Assembly (NCBI GenBank): GCA_002499405.1 | Contig: DALH01000012.1 | Span: 1 to 52,844 of the forward strand | DNA: 52,844 nt | Direction: 5' to 3' | Source of the DNA: Candidatus Micrarchaeota archaeon UBA95 | GTDB lineage: Archaea; Micrarchaeota; Micrarchaeia; Norongarragalinales; Norongarragalinaceae | In this document: positions 2,160 through 33,895 of the stretch, piece by piece | How the letters are laid out: each line of letters starts with the position of its first letter | Position numbering within the stretch: position 1 is the stretch's first letter | The notes under the pieces: model-generated | The model's input: only the letters and a program-made list of their open reading frames with translations | Told to the model about the DNA's origin: nothing | Database searches by the model: none | Made by a program: the position numbers and the translations under genes

Positions 2160-3533
2160 TTATTTAAAGTTTTCCCGTTCGTAGTAGGCGCCCCTGAACT
2201 TGCCTACCTTGCGCAGTTTGCCTTGTTTTACCAGTTCGTTTAAGTCCGCAATGGCGGTTGGAGACGACACGCCGGTTAGCTTGATCAAGTCTTTGGTTTT
2301 TATCTTGCCGTGAGCTTTAGCGAATACCAGGGCTTGTTGCTGGCGAGGGTTCTCTGACTCGACGGGATGCCGTGGTTTGCCGCTTAAAGGGCCGTATAAG
2401 ACTAGTTGGAACGCATCGCCAAGGTTGTTGAAGTCGGGGTCAGGCAGGTGAGCTTGACGGCATAGCTTAACGATTTTAGGTACGCCCGTGCCCAAGCCTT
2501 CACCTAGCCCGAGGTCTTGCAACAACCGGTAGCACAACGGATTCCGGTGCTTTGGATTTTTGAAGAAATTCTGTTGCGTTTGCCCAGGCAGCAATCCACC
2601 CGGATTGGTGATTACTAGCCGGTCTTCATAAATTTCGGCGCGTATGGGCATCGGGTCGTAGTAATCCCTATGGCCTATGGCGTTGGTGATTGCTTCGCGC
2701 AAAGCCGCTTCTGGGTAATCCGGCACCTCTTCGCGCGTGGTTCCAGCGATTTTCTGCGTCTTTCCAATCTTATCGAGGATTAGCGCATACGTCAAGTCGA
2801 TGAGTTCCGGAATGGTGCTGTTTAACCTTTGGTCGAACGTGATTCTATCCACTTCCTTTTCCTTGCCGCGGTAAACCACTACGCGCGCTTCAAGGTTGTT
2901 GAAATGCTTTGCTTGCTCTTTCGCGAAAAACATTAACGCCACGTTCTTCAAGTAGAAAGAACCGTTGAAGCTCGCAATCTTCAAGCCAGTCAGCCTCGTC
3001 TTCAACTCTTCCGCGTTTCGGGAATTGAAGTCTATCCCGCGTTTCTTGAAATAAGCGGCAAGTTTGCTGAAGTCAAGGTCGTCCAACAGGGCTTGAGTTT
3101 TTTGTTCCTCGAAATTGAGAATGCCTCGCGTCCTGAGGTACGCAACGAGTTCTTCGCCGTAAAGCTCGACGTTCGTAGTGCCTTGCCTGATGAAACAACG
3201 CTTTTTACAATGGCAGAGCGATTGTGAGTGCGCTATCTCTCCCACCTTAAGCACTATAAACGTCTTTCCTTCGTTTTTGATAAACTCTTGTTCTACGCCG
3301 CAGTTGGTGCAATCTTCAAGCGCCTGCCTCACTCGCCTGGATTCTTCGTCCGCGTTCTTCACGCCGACGAGTTCGCCTTTCGACCCTACTCCAATCACAA
3401 TAAGCCCGCCGAAGCTGTTGGCGAACGCGGAAATGCTCTCGCCCAATTTCTTCTGCACGCTGGCTTTAAGCTCAACCGTCGGGCTTTCCCCGCCGGAAGC
3501 AATGCGCTGCAACTCAGCGTAAGAAAACGTCAT
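2160..3533 (-). CDS. AlbA_2 (Schlafen-like) domain / HATPase_c_4 / C-terminal winged-HTH protein (often annotated as RecG-like putative transcriptional regulator)
   Basis: N-terminus ESPTVELK...ISAFANSFGGLIVIGV matches the AlbA_2 signature. The central AITNAIGHRDY motif is typical of the HATPase_c_4 family. The C-terminus DLIKLTGVSSPTAIADLNELVKQGKL reads as a wHTH. Its ATG overlaps the stop of the upstream RM gene (ATGA at 3530..3533). Confidence 0.75.
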   Translation of the reverse strand: MTFSYAELQRIASGGESPTVELKASVQKKLGESISAFANSFGGLIVIGVGSKGELVGVKNADEESRRVRQALEDCTNCGVEQEFIKNEGKTFIVLKVGEIAHSQSLCHCKKRCFIRQGTTNVELYGEELVAYLRTRGILNFEEQKTQALLDDLDFSKLAAYFKKRGIDFNSRNAEELKTRLTGLKIASFNGSFYLKNVALMFFAKEQAKHFNNLEARVVVYRGKEKEVDRITFDQRLNSTIPELIDLTYALILDKIGKTQKIAGTTREEVPDYPEAALREAITNAIGHRDYYDPMPIRAEIYEDRLVITNPGGLLPGQTQQNFFKNPKHRNPLCYRLLQDLGLGEGLGTGVPKIVKLCRQAHLPDPDFNNLGDAFQLVLYGPLSGKPRHPVESENPRQQQALVFAKAHGKIKTKDLIKLTGVSSPTAIADLNELVKQGKLRKVGKFRGAYYERENFK

Positions 3534-6436
3534 TTGACCGCCTCCTCAACAATCCGCCTTTCTTCCGCAGTCAAACCGTACAAGTCGTAAACAAGAGCAT
3601 CGAGATTTTGATCCAGTTCAAAAAACTCTTTTTCTAATCCTGGACGGGCGTCTGTCGGTTTATCCTCCAGCGCCCCGAGTTGCGCGCTTACTTTCGCCAT
3701 TTTTCTTGCTAGCTCAACCAACTTAGTCTTGTTGGCACTGCTCGCATCAACGATTGGGAGTTGCTCTAAATACTGCTTGTTACAAGAGTAGAACCCTCCT
3801 CTAAATGGCGTGCTTATTTTTGTTAGATAAAAGGTAAGCAATTTACTATTGAGAATAGCGGTAACGAACTCGTAGTCATCTTTAGATAGCATAACGCCAC
3901 TAACATCCACATTATCCAAACAAAAATTGCCATCATCATAAACGGCGTTTATTCGATGGGCTAGTCTTGGGATGCAAATCTTCGGAAAACTCTGTTTTGT
4001 TAAATTCTTTGGATAAACGTACGCATACCAGTTCAGTCCTTTCATCTTTCCGTTTTCACGATTTTCTAAAGCCTTCTTATTTTCACGTAGGTATCTTGCT
4101 AGGTTGGGGCATTTTTTTTCTACTTCATCGAATGGTGCAAGATTCGCTTTACTATCCTGAACCCAGTACGGAAAGATTACAAACTGCCGTGTTTTTAGTG
4201 GCTTGTACCGTTTAACGTCTGTACCACTTAGGAGTGGCCGAAGTAAGTCCAGCTCAAGTTTTTCGGACCTGTTTAATGATTTACTAAAAAGTGCGTCGTG
4301 GTTTGAACCGGAGAGTATCATTACTTTATCAGCACTTGTTTGAACGCCAACAAAAATTGATTTTGAAATATCGCCTAGTTTCGGGAATCGCTTGAGCTTT
4401 TCGACGATGGATAGTTGATCGCCTGCTACTAAAATCCAGGGTTCAGCGTCTTTTGGTTGGTTCAACGAGGATTTTCGTAAGTCGGATTCGATTAACGTCT
4501 TTCCGTTGTTTGTATTTGCTTTATTGAATTCGGCGTATTCAAACGATCTGTTTTCTTCATTCTTTAGAAAAAGCAGACAGGTGTATGTGGTGGCTCCAGA
4601 AAAGACTTGGAATTCTTTGAAATCTACTAGTTTATTGAGGGCTTTCTTAGAGCTTATCACTTTGCGCAAACCTTCACCGTATTCTGCGGTGAAAAATTTA
4701 GATGGTAATATGTATCCGAGTACTCCCCCCGGCTTCAATAGTTTAAGCGCCTGTTCAACAAACAAACAATAGATATCGTAATTTCTTGTTGTGGACGAAT
4801 AGTTTAAACTAAAATATTTGACGTCCTTCTCAGCCATAGTTTGTATGCGTACATACGGCGGATTCCCGACAACTACGTCAAATCCGCCATCTTTCATTAT
4901 CCCCTCAAATTCTTTGCTCCAGTTGAAAGCACGGTCTCCAGCAACTGTTGGGTCATCTATTAGCGAGTTGCCGCACTTGATGTTTTCGCGCAAATCCGGA
5001 AGACGGTGCTTGGTTTCAGCGGCTTTCAAGAGAAGGTTGAGTTGCGCGATTTCAACGGCTTTGGGGTCGAGGTCAACGCCGTAAAGGTTGTTCTTTAAAA
5101 TCTTGGTCTTGCGCGTTATTTTAGCCGCTTCACTCTCCGGGTCTAGCTTGGCTTGCGCGTAATTCTTGTCCTTCTTCTTGTAGTAATCGTCCAAAACGTC
5201 GAACGCTTTCAGCAAGAACGAGCCGGAACCGCACGCCATGTCGAGGACTTTAATTTTATCGACCTCGTCCGGCTTCTTGTTTTTCAGCATTTCGCCAAGC
5301 GTATTGCGCACGATGTAATCGACGATGTACGTCGGCGTGTAGTAAATGCCTTGCTCCTTGCGGTGCGCTTCCTTGCTCTCAACCTTCGCGCGTTTATCTG
5401 TTTTCTTGAGAATGTGGCTCAAATACTGCTCGTAAATGTTGCCCAGCACGTCGGCGTCGATGGCTGAAAAATCGTAATGCGTCAAGCCGTCCTTGCTGTC
5501 GTAAAGACCCTTGATTACTTGAGCTAATACTTCGTTGTCTATGTCGATGGTTTCGCACAAGTGCCTTTGCGCCAAGTCGCCGGCATTGAACGTAAACAGT
5601 TTGCTGTTGTACGTCTTGTCGAAATGCAGGTAAATCTCGTTAAGCGCGGAAGTCAGCTTGCCGCTCTTTTTCTCTTCGAATTCACGAACTTTAGGCAAAA
5701 GCGTGGGCGGTTCTATGTTCCGGTCTTCCGCAGTCCTGATGAAAATCAAACGATCGATAATCCGTTGGACTGCCTCGTCGACTTCCTCTTCGGACAAGTT
5801 CTTTCCGGCGTTGTTCTTCACGATGTTTTTTGAAAGCAGGGCGCGATGCTGCATTAGTTCGGAAAGCAGTTGGTCGCCGACTTTCGTTTTACGCAGTTTC
5901 TTGCCCCAATTTAAGGCTGCCGTGTCGAGCAGACTTTCCTGAAACGCAAGTTTTGACAGTAACCATAGTTCGCTGAAGTGCTCTGCGAACTGGTCGAAAG
6001 TAAGCGTTTTGAAGCGAGCGTTTGAGAGGTTGTTGTCCTTGACTTCGGCGTTGTAGATTACGAGCGTTTGAAAGTCGGTTAAAACCGCCCAGCTAGTGCC
6101 CTTGTGCCACGCGTAGTTAATGGCTTGACTGGCGTCTTTCGCCTCGTCCAAGCCCTTATTCAACGCTTTTGCTTCCAAAAAGAACTTGGGAATCCCGTTA
6201 ATCCTGAATGAGTAATCGACGCGTCCTTTGGAAACCTTTTCTTCGTTAATCACTTCGTCAAGGCTGTAATCGTTCTCCATGTCCCAGCCTAAAGCGCGGA
6301 AGAGCGGCGTAATAAACGTCTTCTTGGTTTCCTCTTCGCCAAGCCGTTTTGTTTGCCCGGCTTCCTGAAACTGCTTGAACTTTAAAATCAGCCTCTCAAC
6401 GTCTTTCTTGGCTTGGTCATGTTGGGTGTCAGGCAT
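3530..6436 (-). CDS. Type IIG restriction-modification enzyme: N-terminal PD-(D/E)xK nuclease fused to a gamma-class N6-adenine DNA methyltransferase and a TaqI-like specificity domain
   Basis: N-terminus GRVDYSF...FFLEAKAL is an HSDR_N-like D...ExK nuclease motif. Motif I is VLDMACGSGSFLL and motif IV is VVGNPPYVRIQ. The 968-aa single chain has an MmeI/Eco57I-like architecture. Confidence 0.85.
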   Translation of the reverse strand: MPDTQHDQAKKDVERLILKFKQFQEAGQTKRLGEEETKKTFITPLFRALGWDMENDYSLDEVINEEKVSKGRVDYSFRINGIPKFFLEAKALNKGLDEAKDASQAINYAWHKGTSWAVLTDFQTLVIYNAEVKDNNLSNARFKTLTFDQFAEHFSELWLLSKLAFQESLLDTAALNWGKKLRKTKVGDQLLSELMQHRALLSKNIVKNNAGKNLSEEEVDEAVQRIIDRLIFIRTAEDRNIEPPTLLPKVREFEEKKSGKLTSALNEIYLHFDKTYNSKLFTFNAGDLAQRHLCETIDIDNEVLAQVIKGLYDSKDGLTHYDFSAIDADVLGNIYEQYLSHILKKTDKRAKVESKEAHRKEQGIYYTPTYIVDYIVRNTLGEMLKNKKPDEVDKIKVLDMACGSGSFLLKAFDVLDDYYKKKDKNYAQAKLDPESEAAKITRKTKILKNNLYGVDLDPKAVEIAQLNLLLKAAETKHRLPDLRENIKCGNSLIDDPTVAGDRAFNWSKEFEGIMKDGGFDVVVGNPPYVRIQTMAEKDVKYFSLNYSSTTRNYDIYCLFVEQALKLLKPGGVLGYILPSKFFTAEYGEGLRKVISSKKALNKLVDFKEFQVFSGATTYTCLLFLKNEENRSFEYAEFNKANTNNGKTLIESDLRKSSLNQPKDAEPWILVAGDQLSIVEKLKRFPKLGDISKSIFVGVQTSADKVMILSGSNHDALFSKSLNRSEKLELDLLRPLLSGTDVKRYKPLKTRQFVIFPYWVQDSKANLAPFDEVEKKCPNLARYLRENKKALENRENGKMKGLNWYAYVYPKNLTKQSFPKICIPRLAHRINAVYDDGNFCLDNVDVSGVMLSKDDYEFVTAILNSKLLTFYLTKISTPFRGGFYSCNKQYLEQLPIVDASSANKTKLVELARKMAKVSAQLGALEDKPTDARPGLEKEFFELDQNLDALVYDLYGLTAEERRIVEEAVK

Positions 6437-20878: not shown

Positions 20879-23800
20879 ATGTTCGTTGACCGCATAGAAT
20901 TAAGGAACTTCAAGTCGTTTCGCGACGCCAAGATAAAGCTAGTCAACGGCGTTTCCTGCGTTATCGGGCCGAACGGCTCCGGCAAGTGCGTGCGCGGCGA
21001 CTCGCTGGTTTGGCTCGCGAGCGGCGAAACCAAGACGATTGAGGAACTCGTTGAAACGGCGTTGGAGAACGGCTCAAACGCCGAAATGGATGACGGCACT
21101 CTGACCTTGGACAACCCGCTCGGCATAAGCGTTTGGTCGCTGAACCCGGAAACGCTTCAAATGGAAGAGAAGATGGTTCAAGCATTCGTCAAACGCTCCT
21201 CCCCAAATGAGTTGTACGAGGTAACCACGCGTACCGGCAATAAAATCGTTGCAACCGGCTACCACCCACTAATGACCCTTCAAGACGGGAAATTAGCGGC
21301 GCTCAAAGCCGAAGAATTACGGGAAGGAACCTTCATTGCCGCGCCGCGAAGAATGGAATTCAGGGGAAGGGATTACTCGCCGCTAAGAGAACTGATTGAA
21401 TGGAGGACGGGTTTATACGTTGAAGCAAAACCCTTGGAAAAAAGGATGAGGCGCGTCAAAAACGAAAAAGGCAGGACTTGGAAGCAGTTAGCCGAAGATG
21501 CGGGCGTGCCGCTCAACGCGGTCAAAGGATTGCTGGACGGCCAGTCAATAGAGGTATACCACGCAAACAAGCTTGCCCGCATCGCCGGGTTAAGTGAAAC
21601 CGAAAAAAAGGAGTTATTCAAGGACGTGCATTCAAGAAACAGCCGCAAAAAAACCCGCATCCCAACGGAGTTGACGCCCGAACTCGCGCGCTTCCTTGGT
21701 TACGTAGTCAGTGAAGGTCGAGTAGTTGAAAACGAGGTTTTCTTCTACAACTCAGACGAAAACTTGTTGAAAGACTTTGAAAACGTTGCAAGGAAGACGT
21801 TCAACTGCACCGTAACGCGTTGCAACTACAAAGGCAAGGAATTCGTCGTAGTGCCGTCAAAAACGGTTTACAAAATTTTGGAAAAATGTTTCGGCTTCAA
21901 GAAAAACCAGCACTCGCGTGAAAAAACAATTTCCAAAAACCTTGAAAACGCCGAAACCCACGTCATCGCCGAATTCTTGTCAGCGCTCTACGACGGCGAC
22001 GGAACAATTCACGGCTCGCAAGTAAGTTATTGCACGGCAAGCGAAGCGTTGGCCCAAGGAATCAAGCGCTTGCTCCTGCGCACGGGGGTGACCGCCAGCC
22101 TAAAGCCCTGCCTAAAATGCGCAACCAACACGGATAAAAAAATCAAACGAAAATACTACCGCGTAACCGCTTACGGAAAGGAGAACGCGGCAAAACTCGC
22201 TGGACACCTGAAACTGTTGTCAAAAGAAAAGCACAAACGACTGTTAAAACTTGCACTAAGAAAAAAAACGTGCAAGGCAACAGACCTTGTACCGGGCGTA
22301 AACAAAGAGATAAGAAATTATTTAAAGAACAACGGTTTCTCCGACAGAAAACTCAAAAAAATAAAGCCGGGCAGGATACGCGCCTACTACGAAAACCGTT
22401 GCCTGCCAACACGCGCCGGCTTGAAAGCCGTTGCAAGATTATTGAACGGCGTTGGCGCGGTTACGGAAGCGGAAGAAGTCAGCTGCCTCGCGGAATCGGG
22501 TGTTTACTGGGACAAAGTAACCTCAATAAAAAAAGTTGACGGCGAACAATGGGTTTACGACTTGTGCGTTGAAGGCAACCACAACTTTTTATGCGAAGGG
22601 CTTTTCGTACACAACAGCAACGTCGTTGACGCGTTGATGTTCGCTTTCGGCGAGTCCCGCCTGCGCAGCATGCGCGTCAAGAAGTCAACGGACCTCATAT
22701 TCCACAACGCCAAAGCCGGCGAAGCCGTGGTGGAGTTCCGCGAAGGCGACAAAACCCATCCGGTGAAACGCGCGTTGAAACGCGACGGCAAGACGCGTTA
22801 CCTGCTGGACGGCAAGCGCGTGAAGAAATACGTGATAGACGAGTTCCTCGCCAAGCACAACATCTCCATGAACAACGTCATCAAGCAGGGCGAAGTCCAG
22901 CGCATAGTGGAGATGAGCGGCAATGAGCGCCGCGAACTCATTGATTTCGTGGCCAACATAAGCGAGTACGAGGAAAAGAAGGAGGAAGCGCTGAAGGAAC
23001 TGGCGAAGGTGGAGGCAACCCTCAAGGAAGCGCGACTCGTGTTAAGCGACAAGGAAGGCTTTCTCGCCGAACTGAAAGCGGAGAAGGAGGCCGCCGAAAA
23101 ATACGTGGCTTACGACAAGGAGTTCAAGGAATGCCGCGCCACAACGGCCGAAACCGACGCCGCGGCGCTGGAAAAAGAATTCAAGGAATTAATCGAGAAG
23201 GCGGGCAAGGCCGACGAACAGGAAAACGCGTTGAAGGCGCGCCTCAAGGAAGTGGAGGCGGCTCTTGAAAAAACGGACCGGGAAAAGGACGAGGTAAACG
23301 GGGAGATAACGGAGCGCAGCCGGGGCCGCAACCTGGAAGTGCAACGCGAGATGCAGGAATACTTCAACGCGTTGGAGCGCGCCAAAGCCGTGATTGAAGA
23401 CAAGCGGGAGGTGCGCAAGCGGCTGGAGGAACGCCTCCGCGATAAAAACGTGGAGGTCACGCGGGCCGGAGGCGAACTGCAAGGCGTTGAACGGCTGTTG
23501 AAGACCGCGGAAGAAGAACTGGAAAGCATCAGCAAAATTCTTGACTCGGAAGAAGGGAAGCTGAACGCGTTGCAGTCCAAGGAGAAAACTTTTTCCCAGG
23601 AATTTCTGGACGCCAAGAAGACGATTCAGGAATGCGAGGAGGGAATGGCGAGGGCGCGGGAGCGCCTCGGCGAACTCCAAGGCGAACTCGCGGCCCTGCA
23701 GGCAACGAGGCAAGCAAAGGAAAAGGAGTTGGAGCGGCTGCGGCGCGGGGTTGCCGGAGAGGACTTCGAACAACAGAAAAAGGAGTTGGAGCGCCTTGAA

Positions 23801-26008
23801 AACGCGGCCCAAAAAGAATTGGGTGCGATTGACAGGCGCGGAAACGCGTTGTTTGAACGCGAAAACAAGTTGAACCAGCGCAACGCGGAAATTGAAGAAA
23901 AATTGTTGGAGGCGAAGGAAAAGGTCTCCGAACACAGGGGGCGTTTGCAGCACGCGGGCACCAAAGGCCTGTCCGAAGCGCAGGCGGCGCAGGAACTCAA
24001 GGAAAACGTCGAAGGCGTTTACGGCACCGTGCGCGAGTTGTGCTCATTTCCCGAGGAATACGCGGTTCCCGTTGCGGTCGCCCTCGCGAACCGGCTCGGC
24101 TTCATCGTCGTCGCGGACGTGGACGCAGCCGGAAAGGCAATAGACTACTTAAAGCGCAACGACCTCGGCCGCCTCTCCTTCATCCCACTCAACAAAATCA
24201 AGGCGCGGCCCCTGAACGCCGAGGAGAAGGCGCTGGCGAAAAAGCCGGGCGCAATCAGGCACCTCATAGACCTGCTGAAATACGATTCAACCCACGAAAA
24301 AGCCATGCAATACGCGTGCGGCAACACCCTCCTCATGGAGTCGTTCGACGACGCGAAAAAACTCGTGCGCAAGGCGCGCCTGGTAACGCTCAAAGGCGAG
24401 CTACTGGAGTCCAGCGGCCTGGTCACCGGCGGAAAACGGTCCGGAAAGGCGGAGGACGCGTTCGCGGAAAAGGCGGCCCTTGACAAGTGGTCAAAGCAGG
24501 TTGAAAGAACCGCGGCCGAACGCGAAGCCGCGATGCAGTCGTTGCAGGCGCTGCGCGACGAAGTCAACGCCTTCAGGAAGGACCGCACCCAAGCCGAAGT
24601 GGCCTTGAAGGAAGTGCAAATCAGGAAGCAGAACCGGTTGGACCGCGAGAAGTCTTGGCTCTCTCAAAACGCGGACGTTGAAAAGGCGTGCAACGACTTG
24701 AAGAAGGAGGCAAAGGCGTGCGAAAGCCAAGCCGAAGAAAAGGGGGGTGAAAAAAGCGCGCTCATCAGGAGGATGTCCGAACTCAACGTCAAACTCCTGA
24801 ACGCGAAGCAAAAAGTGGACGTTGAAGCCGAACAAAAATTCGGCAACCTGTTAAAGGAAAAACAGCACCAGGTCGGGGAACTCAAAATCGCCTTGAAACA
24901 GCGCGAAGTCGAAGCCGACTCCCAGAAAACCAAGAAAAAGGTTTTGGAGGGGCAACTCGCGTCGTTGAAGAGGCAGTTGGACGACTTCAAAGCCGAAGAC
25001 GATGACGCGAGGAAGGCGATGGACGCGGCGGACGAAACCATAAAGGACTCGCGCAAGCAAATCTCCGCGTTGAAGGAAGAACAAAAGGAGTTGAGCAAGG
25101 GCTTCGAGGAACTGGTGGACAAGCGCGAAGCGCTCGCAAAAAAAGCCGAGAAACTGGAGGGGAACCGGGCGCATGCCAGGAACGAGTTGGACGACTTGGA
25201 CACGGGGCGCCGGAGCACGGACGCGCGAAAGGTGCAGGTGGAAACCCGGTTGGCGGACGCAAAGGCGCGCCTCGCCGAATTCGCGGGCGTGAAATGCCTC
25301 CAGGGAAAGACGCGGGTGTGGCTGATTTCGCGCGCGAACGAGTTGGATGACCTGATAAAGGAGATGGGCGCGGTCAACCTGCGCGCAATAGAAACCTATT
25401 CCCACAAGGCGGCCGACCTGGAGAAGCAGCAGGAACGCGTGGGCATACTCGAAAAGGAGAGGACCGCCGTGATGGCGATAATGGAGGCAATAGACCGCAA
25501 GAAGACGGCAACATTCATGAAGGCATTCGACGAAGTCAACGACTCCTTCCAAAAACTGTTCTCAAAGATTTTCACGGGCAACGGCATGCTTTACCTGGAA
25601 AACCCGGACAACCCGCTGGACGGCGGGCTCACCATCCAGGTGGAGTTGACGAACAAGGAAGTAATGTATTTGGAGTTGATGAGCGGCGGGGAAAAATCCT
25701 TGATCGCACTGCTCTTCCTGTTCGCCATACAATCCGCAAACCCGTCCTCCGTGTACATACTTGACGAGGCGGACGCGGCGCTGGACCAGGAGAACTCGCG
25801 CAAACTCGCCGCACTCCTCAAGGCGTTGAGCCGGGAAAGCCAGTTCATCGTCGTCACCCACAACGAAAACGTTTACAAGGCCGCGGACTGCCTGATAGGC
25901 GTTGCAATGCACGGCAGGCAGGGAAGCAAGGTCGTGGAAGTCAACCTGAACGACGCCAAAAAACTCGTCAACGAGGGGGCGGGAGAAAAAGAAAAATCAG
26001 TTAAATGA
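20879..26008 (+). CDS. smc: SMC chromosome-segregation ATPase, interrupted by an intein in the Walker A loop
   Basis: The Walker A motif GPNGSGK|...|SN is split by the intein. Long coiled coils and a hinge follow, then signature LMSGGEKSL and Walker B VYILDEADAALD. The extein sum is 1166 aa. Confidence 0.92.
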   Translation: MFVDRIELRNFKSFRDAKIKLVNGVSCVIGPNGSGKCVRGDSLVWLASGETKTIEELVETALENGSNAEMDDGTLTLDNPLGISVWSLNPETLQMEEKMVQAFVKRSSPNELYEVTTRTGNKIVATGYHPLMTLQDGKLAALKAEELREGTFIAAPRRMEFRGRDYSPLRELIEWRTGLYVEAKPLEKRMRRVKNEKGRTWKQLAEDAGVPLNAVKGLLDGQSIEVYHANKLARIAGLSETEKKELFKDVHSRNSRKKTRIPTELTPELARFLGYVVSEGRVVENEVFFYNSDENLLKDFENVARKTFNCTVTRCNYKGKEFVVVPSKTVYKILEKCFGFKKNQHSREKTISKNLENAETHVIAEFLSALYDGDGTIHGSQVSYCTASEALAQGIKRLLLRTGVTASLKPCLKCATNTDKKIKRKYYRVTAYGKENAAKLAGHLKLLSKEKHKRLLKLALRKKTCKATDLVPGVNKEIRNYLKNNGFSDRKLKKIKPGRIRAYYENRCLPTRAGLKAVARLLNGVGAVTEAEEVSCLAESGVYWDKVTSIKKVDGEQWVYDLCVEGNHNFLCEGLFVHNSNVVDALMFAFGESRLRSMRVKKSTDLIFHNAKAGEAVVEFREGDKTHPVKRALKRDGKTRYLLDGKRVKKYVIDEFLAKHNISMNNVIKQGEVQRIVEMSGNERRELIDFVANISEYEEKKEEALKELAKVEATLKEARLVLSDKEGFLAELKAEKEAAEKYVAYDKEFKECRATTAETDAAALEKEFKELIEKAGKADEQENALKARLKEVEAALEKTDREKDEVNGEITERSRGRNLEVQREMQEYFNALERAKAVIEDKREVRKRLEERLRDKNVEVTRAGGELQGVERLLKTAEEELESISKILDSEEGKLNALQSKEKTFSQEFLDAKKTIQECEEGMARARERLGELQGELAALQATRQAKEKELERLRRGVAGEDFEQQKKELERLENAAQKELGAIDRRGNALFERENKLNQRNAEIEEKLLEAKEKVSEHRGRLQHAGTKGLSEAQAAQELKENVEGVYGTVRELCSFPEEYAVPVAVALANRLGFIVVADVDAAGKAIDYLKRNDLGRLSFIPLNKIKARPLNAEEKALAKKPGAIRHLIDLLKYDSTHEKAMQYACGNTLLMESFDDAKKLVRKARLVTLKGELLESSGLVTGGKRSGKAEDAFAEKAALDKWSKQVERTAAEREAAMQSLQALRDEVNAFRKDRTQAEVALKEVQIRKQNRLDREKSWLSQNADVEKACNDLKKEAKACESQAEEKGGEKSALIRRMSELNVKLLNAKQKVDVEAEQKFGNLLKEKQHQVGELKIALKQREVEADSQKTKKKVLEGQLASLKRQLDDFKAEDDDARKAMDAADETIKDSRKQISALKEEQKELSKGFEELVDKREALAKKAEKLEGNRAHARNELDDLDTGRRSTDARKVQVETRLADAKARLAEFAGVKCLQGKTRVWLISRANELDDLIKEMGAVNLRAIETYSHKAADLEKQQERVGILEKERTAVMAIMEAIDRKKTATFMKAFDEVNDSFQKLFSKIFTGNGMLYLENPDNPLDGGLTIQVELTNKEVMYLELMSGGEKSLIALLFLFAIQSANPSSVYILDEADAALDQENSRKLAALLKALSRESQFIVVTHNENVYKAADCLIGVAMHGRQGSKVVEVNLNDAKKLVNEGAGEKEKSVK
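20987..22615 (+). mobile_element. SMC intein with LAGLIDADG homing-endonuclease domain (543 aa)
   Basis: Starts at Cys (CVRGDSLVWLASGE, block A). Block B is ATGYHPLMT. LAGLIDADG motifs are LARFLGYVVSEGR and IAEFLSALYDGDGT. It ends VYDLCVEGNHNFLCEGLFVHN, followed by the +1 Ser of GK-SN. Confidence 0.9.
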
Positions 26009-29303: not shown

Positions 29304-29939
29304 GTGGAACCGGCAAGGAAAAGGAACAGGGAACTGCTTGACAAATACAGTGGGAACGGCATCGTCTGGAAGGACGACTTGAACGCGTATTTCGGCCAAG
29401 CGGAAAAGTTTTTCGGGCCATCCCTCAAAGGCAAGCGCGTCCTGAACCTTGGCTCCGGCGACTCCGCGGGACGCGAAAAAGAGAGCTGGCTCGCAGCCAT
29501 GCTGAGGGACCGCGGAGCAGACGTGGTTGACCTTGACCACAGGCCCCCGAAAAGGAGGCCCGCGGTGCGTGCCGACCTTCTGGAAAAAAATCTTCCCTTC
29601 AAGGAAAAGGTTTTTGACTACGTGGTAAGCACCCAGGTATTTGAGAGAATGGGTTGCGAACCCGGCGAAAAACAGGCGCGCAACCTCGCACGCGAAATAA
29701 AGCGCGTCCTAAAGCCGGGCGGGGGATACTTCCAGTACACGCTGAACGAGCCCTCCCTGAAAACAAAACACTTTGAGGGAGCCGGCAAAACCGTGAAAGC
29801 TCGCGGGAAATCGGTTCCGCGCGAAGACATGGACCTGAACACGGAATTGATGATCGTGAATTCTCCCGTGCCGCTCGGCTGGATTCCGTGGCTGAGACAA
29901 CGCGGGCACGTATTGAAGTTCAAGAAAAACAAGACGTGA
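29304..29939 (+). CDS. class I SAM-dependent methyltransferase
   Basis: Motif I RVLNLGSGDS, post-I DVVDLD and motif IV-like LKPGG. GTG start. Confidence 0.65.
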   Translation: MEPARKRNRELLDKYSGNGIVWKDDLNAYFGQAEKFFGPSLKGKRVLNLGSGDSAGREKESWLAAMLRDRGADVVDLDHRPPKRRPAVRADLLEKNLPFKEKVFDYVVSTQVFERMGCEPGEKQARNLAREIKRVLKPGGGYFQYTLNEPSLKTKHFEGAGKTVKARGKSVPREDMDLNTELMIVNSPVPLGWIPWLRQRGHVLKFKKNKT

Positions 29940-30011
29940 TCTGTTCGGTCTTTGGAAGTAGTGGAATAAGGGTCTGAAAAGCCCTTAATAAGCACAAAAC
30001 AAATCAAGAAC

Positions 30012-30929
30012 ATGCGTTTCTTTGAATATCAAAAACTCTTACTTAAAACAAATCCTCGCGTGGTTCTCAACGTAAACGACCGTAAACGAATCTTAAAACC
30101 CGTGTTGAAAAAGGGTTCGATTAAGAGGTTTTGCCGTAAATACGGCTTGAATTACGACTGCATTAGGTTATGGATTGGAACTGGTAAAAAAATCAGGCAA
30201 CCAACTGCGGCGGGCTTACAAAAATTAGAAAACATTCTCGATATCAAAACAAAAAAACGAATATTCCAAGTCAACAACTCAAGGAGAATAGTGTCTGATA
30301 AAAACGTTATGCTAACCGAAGACGCTTGCATAGCAATAGGTTTATTCCTGTCTGAAGGACAGAAAACCACGAACAAGAAAATCACGTTTACGAATACGTC
30401 GGAAAAAGCCGTGTTGTTCTTCAAAAAATTTCTCAAACAAACGTTGCACGTAAAAACCAACAGAATTAAAATTTACGTTTATCACCCACGGAGGTCGCCT
30501 AACAAAGCACGCAATTACGTCAACAAAAAATCAAGCAAGACATGCTTCATCGTCTGCGCATACGACTGCTTCGCAAAAAGGGTTTTGAATAAACTAATCG
30601 GGGAGCTTGAATCGCCCACAAGCGAAGAAGCGCGCGGTTTATTGCAAGGCCTGCTTTACGGTGACGGCAACCTTGACTTCAGTGATTCAAGAAAGCATTA
30701 CGAGATAAGTATGGCCCTGGGCAAAAAGGAATGCAAAATCGCTGAAAAAACGCTTAAAAAACTCGGAATAAATTACAAGAAAAAAACTAAAAACAAAGTA
30801 GAAATCATCTCAATCCACAAAAAAAGCAACTTCGTTAAGGTTTGGCGAGCCGGGGGATTCGGAAAATTTGAAGAAGCGAAAAACGATAGGTTAAAGAAAG
30901 CCATATCAAATTACACTTACTCGAGGTGA
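30012..30929 (+). CDS. free-standing double-motif LAGLIDADG homing-endonuclease-like protein with N-terminal HTH
   Basis: The two motifs are ACIAIGLFLSEGQ and LLQGLLYGDGNL. The N-terminus GSIKRFCRKYGLNYDCIRLWI is HTH-like. The gene is strongly A/T-rich relative to its flanks and ends 10 nt before rtcB. Confidence 0.7.
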   Translation: MRFFEYQKLLLKTNPRVVLNVNDRKRILKPVLKKGSIKRFCRKYGLNYDCIRLWIGTGKKIRQPTAAGLQKLENILDIKTKKRIFQVNNSRRIVSDKNVMLTEDACIAIGLFLSEGQKTTNKKITFTNTSEKAVLFFKKFLKQTLHVKTNRIKIYVYHPRRSPNKARNYVNKKSSKTCFIVCAYDCFAKRVLNKLIGELESPTSEEARGLLQGLLYGDGNLDFSDSRKHYEISMALGKKECKIAEKTLKKLGINYKKKTKNKVEIISIHKKSNFVKVWRAGGFGKFEEAKNDRLKKAISNYTYSR

Positions 30930-30938
30930 AGCACAAAA

Positions 30939-33895
30939 TTGGAGTTTGAAGAAATGCGGGACTGCGTCTTTAAGGCGAAGGACGCCAACGTGACGATCTA
31001 CGCCAAACGCGAATTGTTTGAGGCAATGAAGGGCGACCGAACCTTCAAGCAAATCAAGAACGTTTCGCACCTGCCCGGATTGGAAGGCAACGCAATGGTC
31101 ATGCCCGATGGGCACGAAGGATACTCTTTTCAAAGCATTTGATAAGGGCCTTTAACGGTTTCCCAATCGGAGGCGTTGCCGCGTTCCGCATGGAGGACGG
31201 CGTTATCTCGCCTGGCGGAGTCGGGTATGACGTGAACTGCACCGACGGAGAAACCGCGGTTTTGTTCGAACACGGCACGTACCTTAAAATCAAGGAAATG
31301 GAAAACGGGGTCGGCGAAAGTCAAGCCCGTTTCCTTGACATCAACGGAGCGCTCGCATACGGAAACGCAAAAGTCGTCTGCTTCATGAAGAGACCGGAAG
31401 AATCCCATATATATGAAATAACCACCAGAACCGGCAAACGCATAAAAGTAACGGGCGACCACCCGATTTATACTAGGGAGGGAATGAAAAATGCGGATGC
31501 CATTAGCACAAACGATTCGGTGGCAACAACCGCGTTTAACGGCGTGCCTCACAAAGAACCAGAAAAAAAACTAATGGTAACCAAAGAAGAAATAGAAAAA
31601 ATACTTTTCGCAAAAAGAGGCAAAGTAAGAGGGAATTCCATAGCGCAAATAGTCAAAGACCTTGAAAGGCGCGGCTTGTTGCCATTAACTTCTTCACACC
31701 CGCAATTTCCATACCTCGTCAAGACGTTGGGTTACGTGTTTGGAGACGGTTCGATATCCTTTGTCAACGGAAAAAAAGGAACGACTTGGTTTTACGGCAA
31801 AGAAGAAGATTTGGAATCAATCCGCGAAGACATCAAGAAAATCGGGTTTACTCCTTCCAAAATCTATAAACGCACGAGAACACACCGCATTTCCACCTAC
31901 TATAAAAAACACGAATTCATACAGGTAGAATACAGCTTTAAGGTAGGTTCAACTGGTTTCGCGGCACTGTTGACCGCCCTTGGAACGCCTTCGGGCCTGA
32001 AGGCCACACAAGAATATGAAGTGCCCGGCTGGTTGAATCAAAGCCCCCTGTGGATTAAAAGACTGTTTCTTGCGGCTTTTTTCGGTGCCGAAATGTCGGC
32101 GCCAGCAACTCCGAACAAATACAACTTTTATGCGCCCACGCTCGGCATGAATAAACTGGAATCACTCGAATTAAACGCCGCAGAATTTTTGGAACAAATC
32201 AAAGCGTTATTATCGGATTTCGGGGTTGAAACCAGTCCAATAATGAAGGTTAAGGAATACGGAACCAAAGGAAAAAAAGGCGTCACTTGCGGCTACAGGA
32301 TTCAAGTAAGTTCAAAACCTGAAAACTTGAAAAAATTCTTTGAAACGGTTTCATTTGAATACAACAAGGAAAAATTCAAGAAAGCCTGCCTTGCAGCAAA
32401 CTACATTTACCTTAAAGAAAAGGTTAAAGAAAAAAGGAAAAGGATTCGAAAAACTGCGATAGCCCTTTATGCCGAAGGCAACTCGCCGCAAAATATTTGC
32501 AGGGAGTTATGTGACGAAAACGCTAATGAAGGATTCGTAAAGCATTCCATTTGGACAAACTACAAGGAAAACCCCCGCATTACGCCCGACTTCATGTCGT
32601 TTTCGGAATATCAAGAAAAATACGCTTGCGGTGATTCTGGAGCATCATGGGATGAAATAGAAAAAATAGAGAGAATACCCTTCGATGACTGGGTATACGA
32701 CATTACGATTGGTAACGAAAACCATAACTTTATCGCCAACGGATTCATCGTCTCAAACTGCGGGATGCGCCTGCTGCGCTCGGACCTCCAAGCCGACGAA
32801 GTGAAGCCCCGCGCAAAAGAATTGGTTGAAAGGTTTTACGCCAACGTGCCCGTCGGCGTCGGCACCAAGGCGCGCAAAACCTTTTCAAAGGAGGAACTCG
32901 GCGAAGCCGTGACGCGCGGCTTGGGCTGGGCGCTGGAACAAGACGTGGGCGTAAAAAAAGACGCCGAGCACTGCGAGGAAAACGGTTGCATGGCGGGCGC
33001 GGATTACTCCAAGGTGAGCGACCTCGCCAAGAAACGCGGAAAACCCCAGCTCGGCACCCTTGGAAGCGGAAACCATTTCTTGGAGTTGCAACGCGTGGCC
33101 CAGGTGTTCGACGACGAAAAAGCGCGCGCCTTCGGCTTGTTCGAGGGCCAGGCCACCGTAATGATTCACTCGGGTTCGCGGGGTTACGGCCACCAGATTT
33201 GCTCGGATTACATCCGCGTGATGCTTGACGCCAGCCGAAAATACGGCATTCACTTGGCCGACCCCGAACTCTGCTGCGCCCCCATCAACTCGCAGGAAGC
33301 AAGGGATTACGTTGGCGCGATGGCTTCGGCAGTGAACTACGCCTTCCTGAACCGCTTGTTCATGGCGCACTGGGTGAGGCAGTCATTTGAACAAGTGCTG
33401 GGAGGCGACTGGGAAACGCACGGCTTGCACTCAATTTACGACGTGTGCCACAACATAGCCAAATTCGAGGAACACGGCGGAAAAAAATTGTGCGTGCACC
33501 GCAAGGGCGCTACGCGCGCTTTCTGGGCGGGACGCGAAGAAGTTCCGGCCGACTACCGTTCAATTGGCCAGCCCGTAATCATTCCGGGCTCAATGCAGAC
33601 CGCTTCATACGTGTTGTGCGGCTTGGAGGGCGCGAAGGAATCGTGGGGAACCGTTTGCCACGGCGCGGGCCGCGTCATGAGCCGCCACGCAGCAATCCAG
33701 TCATTTGACTCGAACGCTCTCGTGAAAAACATGCATTCCAGAAGCATTGAAGTAAAGGCAAAAGACGCGCGCACGCTCTCCGAGGAAGCAGGGGGCGCTT
33801 ACAAGAACGTTGACGACGTGGTGGAAAGCGTTGAGCGCGCGGGCCTCGCCAAAATCGTGGCGCGGTTGGAGCCCCTCGGCGTAATCAAGGGCTAG
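30939..33895 (+). CDS. rtcB: RNA-splicing ligase RtcB, interrupted by a 32-nt BHB intron (31123..31154) and a LAGLIDADG intein (31238..32758)
   Basis: GAGGTGA lies 8 nt upstream of the TTG at 30939. Exon 1 (30939..31122) ends ...NAMVMPDGHEGY. Exon 2 (31155..) continues GFPIGGVAAFRMEDGVISPGGVGYDVN-[intein]-CGMRLLRSDL...GSGNHFLE...HSGSRGYGHQ...HRKGATRA...VIIPGSM. The predicted mature protein is 467 aa. Confidence 0.9.
31123..31154 (+). other. bulge-helix-bulge (hBHBh') intron within the rtcB coding sequence
   Basis: Central helix is A31117-A-G-G31120 paired with C31149-C-U-U31152 (4 Watson-Crick bp). The 3-nt bulges are 31121-23 (AUA) and 31153-55 (UAA) on opposite strands. Inner helix is 31124-28 with 31144-48 (C-G, U-G, C-G, U-A, U-A), extended by 31130-34 with 31138-42 and a GCA triloop. 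Outer helix is G31116-C31156 and C31115-G31157. Cleavage after the 2nd bulge nucleotide removes 32 nt and gives GGA UAC GGU UUC CCA = GYGFP. Confidence 0.78.
31238..32758 (+). mobile_element. RtcB intein with LAGLIDADG homing-endonuclease domain (507 aa)
   Basis: Starts CTDGETAVLF (block A). Block B is VTGDHPIYT. LAGLIDADG motifs are LVKTLGYVFGDGS and IKRLFLAAFFGAEMS. It ends VYDITIGNENHNFIANGFIVSN. The +1 residue is the Cys of the conserved GYD(I/V)NCG active-site motif. Confidence 0.9.

Follow-up and report, generated by a model that had tools for sequence, protein, structure and literature searches.

Introduction

The cleavage of bulge-helix-bulge (BHB) motifs by the archaeal splicing endonuclease EndA, which leaves 2',3'-cyclic phosphate and 5'-OH ends that are joined by the ligase RtcB, is established biochemistry (PMC5829648). 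Only two archaeal mRNAs, those of cbf5 and HVO_1309, are named in the reviews found as being spliced by this tRNA-splicing machinery (PMC10485636). The cbf5 pre-mRNA of Crenarchaeota contains a BHB intron (Watanabe, 2002; Yoshinari, 2006; Yokobori, 2009, PMC2738675), and the HVO_1309 mRNA of Haloferax volcanii carries a BHB element (Schwarz, 2020, PMC7714728; reviewed in PMC10485636). BHB introns in protein-coding genes, as in cbf5, and EndA-processed mRNA, as in HVO_1309, are hence already known. In metazoans, ligation of the XBP1 type is also done by RtcB (PMC3400036). Here we describe the rtcB gene (30939..33895, + strand) of Candidatus Micrarchaeota archaeon UBA95, located on contig DALH01000012.1 of assembly GCA_002499405.1, the whole 52,844 nucleotides (nt) of which are referred to as the window. 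Positions 31123..31154 of this gene are, very probably, a genuine archaeal BHB intron of the rtcB pre-mRNA that would be removed by EndA and RtcB, the splicing being inferred from the sequence. An earlier note on this DNA had taken a BHB intron in rtcB to be undescribed, and no account of an rtcB intron or of BHB introns in DPANN mRNAs was found in the literature searched, outside of which most subscription journals lie.

The rtcB Reading Frame and Its Predicted Intron

As seen in the sequence and in the list of open reading frames (ORFs), the rtcB frame breaks within the motif MPDGHEGY/GFPIGG. The ORF 30939..31142 starts with TTG, encodes 67 amino acids (aa) and has the C-terminus ...MPDGHEGYSFQSI, i.e., ...GYSFQSI before the stop codon, and a 918-aa ORF in another frame (31139..33895) carries on with ..GFPIGGVAAF... 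The TTG at 30939 lines up with the internal Met of MEFNEIRD in P0003, an RtcB protein of 83% identity. With the insert taken out, the gene reads as follows.

30924..30929, + strand: Shine-Dalgarno-like AGGTGA, 9 nt 5' of the rtcB TTG start, read from the sequence
30939..31122, + strand: rtcB exon 1, 61 codons and 1 nt, ending with ...MPDGHEG and the T of the Tyr codon (ORF list, conceptual splice, alignment to Pfam RtcB and PH1602)
31115..31157, + strand: hBHBh' motif (RNAfold minimum free energy structure, RNAalifold consensus, covariation, shuffle test)
31123..31154, + strand: predicted BHB intron, 32 nt, ACTCTTTTCAAAGCATTTGATAAGGGCCTTTA; excision restores the frame, gap in contig L122, same sequence in L001, L128 and L129
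31155..31237, + strand: rtcB exon 2, N-extein part, ..YGFPIGGVAAF...GGVGYDVN
31238..32758, + strand: intein, 507 aa, CTDGE...FIVSN followed by the +1 Cys, with a LAGLIDADG-type endonuclease region; site GYDVN/CGMRLL
32759..33895, + strand: rtcB exon 2, C-extein part including the stop codon

The unconstrained minimum free energy (MFE) structure of 31105..31170 computed with RNAfold is an hBHBh' fold of -19.2 kcal/mol (z = -2.44 against shuffles). It consists of an outer helix h of 2 base pairs (bp; C-G and G-C, 31115-16/31156-57), a central helix H in which all four pairs form between exon AAGG (31117-20) and intron CCUU (31149-52), two 3-nt bulges on opposite strands (5' AU/A, 31121-23; 3' UA/A, 31153-55) and an inner helix h' of 5 + 5 bp (31124-28/31144-48 and 31130-34/31138-42) closed by the GCA loop 31135-37. 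Cuts after the second nucleotide of each bulge would excise exactly 31123..31154 (GC content 11/32, or 34%), a segment with the in-frame stops TGA and TAA, and the conceptually spliced junction GGA TAC GGT TTC CCA ATC GGA GGC encodes GYGFPIGG. When the 32 intron bases were shuffled 200,000 times with the exons held fixed, only 0.027% of the shuffles had, in the frame-restoring register, a complete central helix and 5 bp or more in the inner helix.

The protein without intron and intein has 467 aa and is matched by Pfam RtcB (PF01139) over the whole profile (1-426/426, E 8.9e-168), and its residues 19-467 are matched by the Pyrococcus horikoshii RtcB structure (PH1602; 1uc2/4dwq) with E 5e-156. 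The PH1602 alignment is ungapped across MPDGHxGYGFPIGGVAAF, the PH1602 side being vmpdghqgygfpiggvaaf, and rtcB is otherwise intact, with no further frameshifts or stops. These results bear out the earlier note in several respects: the loss of the frame in the conserved N-terminal motif between a 67-aa ORF and a 918-aa ORF in another frame, the 67-aa fragment (30939..31142 in the ORF list) expected from unspliced mRNA, the BHB drawn by hand, which RNAfold returned in identical form, and the removal of exactly 31123..31154 (about 34% GC) with recovery of GYGFPIGG. The continuous match of the spliced product to an RtcB family profile through GYGFPIGG, which the note had proposed as a check, was obtained, also after removal of the intein.

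An empty site is present in a close relative. The closest protein in a collection of 5.8 billion proteins is P0003 (479 aa, 83% identity), an uninterrupted RtcB without intein, and the gene order of its contig, L122, is that of the window (SMC, ferredoxin, EF-Tu-D2 protein, SpoIIM, GATase, GMP synthase, RtcB, giant surface protein). Aligned with the window, the intronless rtcB DNA of L122, which reads CACGAGGGCTACGGGTTTCC, leaves a single clean 32-nt gap at precisely 31123..31154. The syntenic rtcB genes encoding P0004 and P0005 (66-67% identity) are likewise uninterrupted. The 52-nt stretch with the intron is identical in the JGI contig L001 and in two NCBI Candidatus Micrarchaeota assemblies of the CG series, L128 (GCA_001871605.1) and L129 (GCA_002785565.1); the assembly artifact that the earlier note wished to see excluded is thus countered by three independent assemblies with the same sequence.

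The intein in rtcB had gone unmentioned in the earlier note. It is recognized by Pfam Intein_splicing (PF14890, E 1.7e-20) and Hint, the exteins rejoin as GYDVN-CGMRLL, and an N-terminal Cys, a C-terminal Asn, a +1 Cys, the profile match and extein continuity are all found.

Homologous Inserts in Other DPANN Archaea

A scan of one genome per GTDB species with the degenerate pattern ATGCCNGAYNNNCAYN{21,51}GGNTTYCCNRTNGGNGG gave at least 119 loci. At least 118 of them are loci of archaeal metagenome-assembled genomes with an insert in the same nine bases, the one other match being bacterial (Nitrosospira) and due to chance. The record titles of these archaeal loci are mostly Woesearchaeota, Micrarchaeota, Aenigmatarchaeota or Nanoarchaeota; different titles among the matches listed are, e.g., 'uncultured Methanosarcinales', 'Methanobacteriota' and 'uncultured archaeon'. 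Splicing in the BHB register gives MPD.H.GYGFP[IV]GG (H-x-G-Y-G-F) in 118 of 118 listed archaeal loci and in L002, a 56-aa ORF from an unrelated run (63% identity, no intein). The insert of L002 is 32 nt long and occupies the same site as that of the window, with the same central helix and bulges and a different, compensated inner stem. Insert lengths among the matches listed range from 14 to 39 nt, 30-33 being the most frequent. The earlier note, which saw a single curiosity, had suggested looking for the insert and for compensatory changes in related genomes; both are present in at least 118 species-level genomes, and the rtcB intron is widespread among DPANN archaea.

Counted from the His codon, five insertion positions are in use (at least 118 loci together with L002, the window and L001):

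directly after CAY (class 0): n = 50, mostly with a relaxed central helix of 3 of 4 pairs
after 2 nt past the His codon: n = 9
after 6 nt past the His codon: n = 1
after 7 nt past the His codon (class 7, the class of the window): n = 60, the window and its duplicate L001 counted; all four central-helix pairs in 49
after 9 nt past the His codon: n = 1

By RtcB similarity, the window falls among the class-7 loci of Micrarchaeota. Since an in-frame stop occurs in each of the 57 inserts with a length that is a multiple of three (among the matches listed), and since 114 of 120 unspliced frames terminate inside the insert, the inserts cannot be translated as extra residues. Their lengths cover all three classes modulo 3.

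Covariation Between Exons and Inserts

Covariation in class 7 was measured on a structure-anchored alignment of 53 distinct sequences with 500 shuffles. Standard pairs occupy 88.5% of the cells (66.6% in shuffles), the score for covariation is 0.697 (0.253 in shuffles), and neither value was attained in any of the 500 shuffles; when the 3' partners were slid by 1 to 3 columns, only 31-60% were paired. For class 0, the corresponding proportion is 81.8% vs. 69.1% in shuffles (0/500). The exon strand of the central helix varies with the encoded amino acid, and the 3' strand of the intron tracks it: AAGG/CCUU is found with Glu and Gln, GGGG pairing with CCCU, CUCU or CUCC with Trp, and CAGG/CCUG as well as GCGG/CCGC (exon/intron) with Ser. 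In class 0, the intron (A/G) likewise covaries with the preceding Gly codon, at its synonymous third base (U/C). From an ordinary MAFFT alignment of 10 class-7 sequences and with no structure given, RNAalifold also returned hBHBh', with compensatory changes at 11 of 18 pairs.

The canonical EndA-type BHB intron in rtcB put forward in the earlier note is supported by the fold, the product, the empty site, the three assemblies and the homologous inserts with their covariation. Some observations weigh on the other side. In a context of 156 nt, the MFE structure keeps the BHB core, but swaps the two outer pairs for others, and its overall z-score is unremarkable. No EndA gene was found by a Pfam scan of the ORFs in the 52-kb window, the enzyme being assumed from the phylum, and neither EndA nor archease appeared in the Pfam scan of 33 further window ORFs. 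The spliced junction, searched as an exact 38-mer, had 0 matches in JGI metagenome contigs, a result that is uninformative.

Proposed Route of Splicing

In the route that we propose, the rtcB transcript would fold by pairing of exon AAGG (31117-20) with intron CCUU (31149-52), thereby exposing the two 3-nt bulges, and EndA would cut after the second base of each, producing a 2',3'-cyclic phosphate and a 5'-OH end. RtcB would then join 31122 to 31155, and the 32-nt intron would probably be circularized. Translation of the spliced mRNA, followed by removal of the intein through protein splicing, would yield the normal 467-aa RtcB. Because unspliced mRNA would give a 67-aa fragment only, the making of new RtcB would take EndA as well as RtcB that is already there, passed on when cells divide. 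In Micrarchaeota, the epsilon2 EndA of ARMAN-2 has been characterized and has a broad BHB specificity (PMC6379350), which fits the relaxed motifs of class 0.

Other kinds of introns were considered as well. An Rfam scan of the whole window at the gathering threshold reported a tRNA-Ala only, and ARAGORN found one tRNA, without intron. A group I or group II intron was rejected, since no ribozyme covariance model was matched in the whole-window Rfam scan and the insert has 32 nt vs. the hundreds of such introns. An IRE1-type intron, as in XBP1 and HAC1, was rejected too: the predicted cuts lie in 3-nt bulges beside a 4-bp helix and not in twin 7-nt loops, and IRE1 is, to our knowledge, absent from archaea.

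Intron Turnover and Possible Function

On a neighbor-joining tree of the C-terminal 370 RtcB residues with 98 tips, the intron class changes about 23 times, and the nearest neighbor belongs to a different intron class in 27 of the 98 tips. In the pairs L046/L005, L099/L042 and L072/L018, the RtcB proteins are 90-94% identical and the exon flanks are closely aligned. Genes so similar nevertheless carry unrelated introns at different positions (class 0 vs. class 7), and intron replacement must therefore have been very recent. Such quick replacement within one short stretch implies recurrent gain and loss, through mobility of some form or a strong site preference, and speaks against a regulatory element that is finely tuned.

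About 25 codons further downstream, 23 of 108 assessable loci among the matches listed (including L006, L010, L012, L013, L014, L028, L044, L071, L075, L079 and L081) contain a second BHB intron, 12-36 nt in length. It lies at several positions within G(Y/F)D(I/V)NC, just 5' of the intein insertion point, and has all four central-helix pairs in 21 of the 23 loci; in the window, this second site adjoins the intein. The break points located by tblastn in all loci cluster in three places, at residues ~55-65 (short inserts), ~85-90 (short and long) and ~220 (one long insert), the long inserts at ~85-90 being presumably inteins. L099 and L018 share a 12-nt micro-intron, TTTAAACCTTAG, between GGAGGAA and TCGGG; checked by hand, it has a complete central helix and 4 bp in the outer helix, with hardly any inner helix. 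Few BHB introns known to us are as small.

Within the window, no comparable break was found in the other conserved genes scanned against Pfam. Generic hBHBh' scans of the window, with and without ORF merging, gave about 400 hits vs. 336-390 in shuffled sequence; they find the rtcB intron again, and the spurious long ORFs of this 55% GC genome lead to many false merges, so that other genes are not judged by them.

These data bear on the idea that the intron is kept because it is useful, gating RtcB synthesis on EndA and existing RtcB and thereby establishing a feed-forward or positive feedback on tRNA splicing comparable to XBP1/HAC1. The retention of an intron within the same nine bases in more than 100 species, which by their record titles belong to several DPANN groups of phylum level, speaks for such a role, as do the second rtcB site occupied in 23 of 108 loci, the stops in all 57 inserts of in-frame length, by which no aberrant enzyme would arise from unspliced mRNA, and the lack of a comparable break in the other conserved window genes. 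Against an essential role of this kind stand the approximately 23 changes of class on the tree and the uninterrupted rtcB of the close relatives (P0003, 83%; P0004 and P0005, 66-67%), and the exchange of both position and sequence between proteins of 90-94% identity is unlike the behavior of a tuned element. The dependence on the ligase would further be a positive and not a homeostatic feedback, and BHB introns of tRNAs are also kept for a long time without known function. On this balance, we regard retention for regulation as doubtful. The autoregulatory loop as such would be a logical consequence of the identity of the gene, and ligase synthesis could be coupled to the activity of EndA.

The sequence comparisons favor a tolerated, mobile mini-intron, repeatedly gained, lost or replaced at two rtcB hot spots, over a universally required regulator, and a tolerated or mobile element accounts for the patchy distribution and fast turnover no less well than an indispensable regulator would. 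Somewhat speculatively, the mini-introns might not be passive at all, forming either a self-referential control circuit of the ligase, a prokaryotic counterpart of XBP1/HAC1, or mobile BHB introns that home to two rtcB motifs, in some Micrarchaeota with an upstream LAGLIDADG partner. We put this forward tentatively, as conceivable rather than probable; either form of it, circuit or homing, would account for introns having been exchanged again and again at the same few rtcB bases.

The Upstream LAGLIDADG Reading Frame

A candidate for such a partner precedes rtcB in the window:

30012..30929, + strand: free-standing ORF with LAGLIDADG_3 and helix-turn-helix domains (Pfam), ending 9 nt before the rtcB start and possibly associated with it

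Homologues of this ORF abut rtcB in L038, L086 and L127 (79% identity). No LAGLIDADG ORF was found upstream of rtcB in the intronless syntenic relatives L122, L125 and L126, and no upstream LAGLIDADG-like ORF was detected by tblastn and motif scan in roughly 115 other intron-bearing loci. As a general explanation of the introns, the ORF was therefore set aside, being restricted to a few lineages of Micrarchaeota. The LAGLIDADG ORF, the intron and the intein make up a low-GC island (30000..32800, 0.44 vs. ~0.55 elsewhere), and this coincidence suggests that the three may have arrived from outside; a history linked to homing endonucleases is suggested by the sequence as well, and the ORF may be the homing-endonuclease partner of the intron.

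In a process of collaborative homing, the intron would interrupt the target of the upstream LAGLIDADG enzyme and so protect its own allele, and an intronless rtcB would be cut and both the endonuclease gene and the intron co-converted. There is a precedent for collaborative homing in the cyanophage psbA intron and F-CphI. The position of the ORF directly at the rtcB start in four lineages (the window, L127, L038 and L086), its absence from the three intronless syntenic relatives and the low-GC island shared by endonuclease ORF, intron and intein (0.44 vs. 0.55) are in line with this process, and several intron positions in one short conserved stretch, together with fast turnover, are expected if disrupting a target of 15-20 bp is what matters. 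The ORF is nevertheless confined to few Micrarchaeota loci, the target of the endonuclease is only hypothetical, the association (3 in 8 vs. 0 in 3) is not statistically significant, and second-site introns coexist with inteins in some genes. As most intron-bearing loci have no such LAGLIDADG ORF, collaborative homing appears unlikely.

Translational and Artifactual Explanations

It is also conceivable that the insert is handled during translation, by ribosomal bypassing of the T4 gene 60 type, by a programmed frameshift or by assembly of a split RtcB from two polypeptides. The downstream frame is indeed open across the insert, with a TTG at 31139, the insert has a hairpin and a stop like bypass elements, and split genes are known in Nanoarchaeota. 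For bypassing, however, there are no matching take-off and landing codons around 31120..31157 that would yield GYGF; a frameshift would add about 10 residues inside the most conserved motif; and a split would break the protein within GY/GFPIGG, with the junk residues SFQSI left behind. Insert lengths in all three classes modulo 3 speak against all of these mechanisms, and none of them predicts that more than 100 species should have a 4-bp helix and two 3-nt bulges in exact register, or that the exon codon should covary with the 3' end of the insert. Bypassing, frameshift and split gene were accordingly rejected on the grounds of missing hop codons, damage to the motif, and unexplained register and covariation, and we hold them to be very improbable.

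A decaying pseudogene, or a chimera or assembly artifact of 32 nt, with a functional rtcB elsewhere, could be thought of because annotation pipelines treat the gene as broken (no call in GCA_001871605.1, two fragments in GCA_002785565.1) and because the window spans 52 kb only, but both were rejected as next to incredible, given that three assemblies made from different samples have the same sequence, that the frame is otherwise clean with a full-length Pfam RtcB match, that at least 118 other species have an equivalent insert which always restores the frame at the BHB register and whose helices covary, and that no second rtcB was found among the scanned window ORFs, this gene being the sole RtcB-family match.

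Gene Calls and Neighboring Genes

In the gene calls of the two NCBI assemblies, no gene is given over rtcB in GCA_001871605.1, and GCA_002785565.1 has two fragments of 67 aa and 918 aa. Several neighboring genes deserve mention.

29304..29939, + strand: small S-adenosylmethionine-dependent methyltransferase ORF between guaA and the LAGLIDADG ORF; absent from L122, where guaA directly precedes rtcB
20879..26008, + strand: SMC gene, 1709 aa, with a LAGLIDADG intein at residues 45-579, near the N-terminal ATPase motif
2160..6436, - strand: Eco57I/MmeI-like fused restriction-modification gene (968 aa) beside a Schlafen/AlbA_2 and HATPase_c_4 gene (457 aa)

The SMC intein is matched by Pfam Intein_splicing (E 1e-27) and LAGLIDADG_3 (E 9e-17). 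The genes at 2160..6436 sit in a second stretch of lower GC content (0.45-0.48) and are probably a defense islet.

Implications

With rtcB, a third archaeal mRNA case is added to cbf5 and HVO_1309, extending over at least 118 other species-level genomes and, by record title, several DPANN phylum-level groups. As the predicted intron lies in the gene of the very ligase that completes the reaction, RtcB synthesis would depend on RtcB, and one may ask how such an enzyme is bootstrapped and inherited in cells with minimal genomes. As introns are swiftly exchanged at the same bases, rtcB is a tractable system in which the gain of BHB introns can be studied, and introns of 12-39 nt with exon-intron covariation are ready substrates for studies of EndA specificity. 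For genome annotation, calling the essential rtcB as fragments or as no gene distorts estimates of DPANN completeness and metabolic inferences; judging from the calls in L128 and L129, which give no gene or fragments, rtcB of DPANN archaea is probably under-called in general.

Comparison With Known Systems

The closest described system is cbf5, which has in common with rtcB an EndA-type intron in the protein-coding gene of an RNA-processing enzyme, removal by the tRNA-splicing machinery (predicted for rtcB) and a patchy distribution, with gain and loss deduced for cbf5. Unlike cbf5, rtcB encodes the splicing pathway's own ligase and its introns occur in DPANN archaea instead of Crenarchaeota; the window motif is a strict hBHBh', whereas that of cbf5 has been described as relaxed; and the rtcB introns, of 14-39 nt, occupy at least five positions in nine bases, besides the second hot spot, in at least 118 other species-level genomes. 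HVO_1309 is likewise an mRNA substrate of archaeal EndA with flanks that are re-ligated, as predicted for rtcB, but gene and lineage are different, and the rtcB intron falls in a codon of a catalytic motif and causes a frameshift and a stop.

With the BHB introns of archaeal pre-tRNAs and rRNAs, the rtcB introns share 3-nt bulges, a 4-bp central helix, a cut after the second bulge base, the presumed enzymes and, in the case of tRNA introns, the size. They differ in that the central helix pairs the intron with coding sequence of the exon, so that codon choice and the encoded residue (Glu, Trp, Ser or Gln) change together with the intron. XBP1 and HAC1, the mRNAs of unconventional IRE1/RtcB splicing in eukaryotes, also have a short non-spliceosomal intron, of 26 nt in XBP1, whose excision switches the frame; there, however, IRE1 and twin 7-nt loops are employed in a regulatory, stress-induced reaction, and EndA and a BHB are predicted for rtcB. 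The resemblance to collaborative homing of psbA and F-CphI lies in a free-standing ORF of a homing-endonuclease family beside a gene with a small, ORF-less intron at a conserved site; in psbA, the intron is of group I, and in rtcB it is of the BHB type, with a putative association seen in only four lineages. Compared with all these systems, rtcB is new as a host gene, since it encodes the ligase of the pathway itself; also new are the lineage and breadth of its introns, the multiplicity and turnover of their positions, and their very small sizes.

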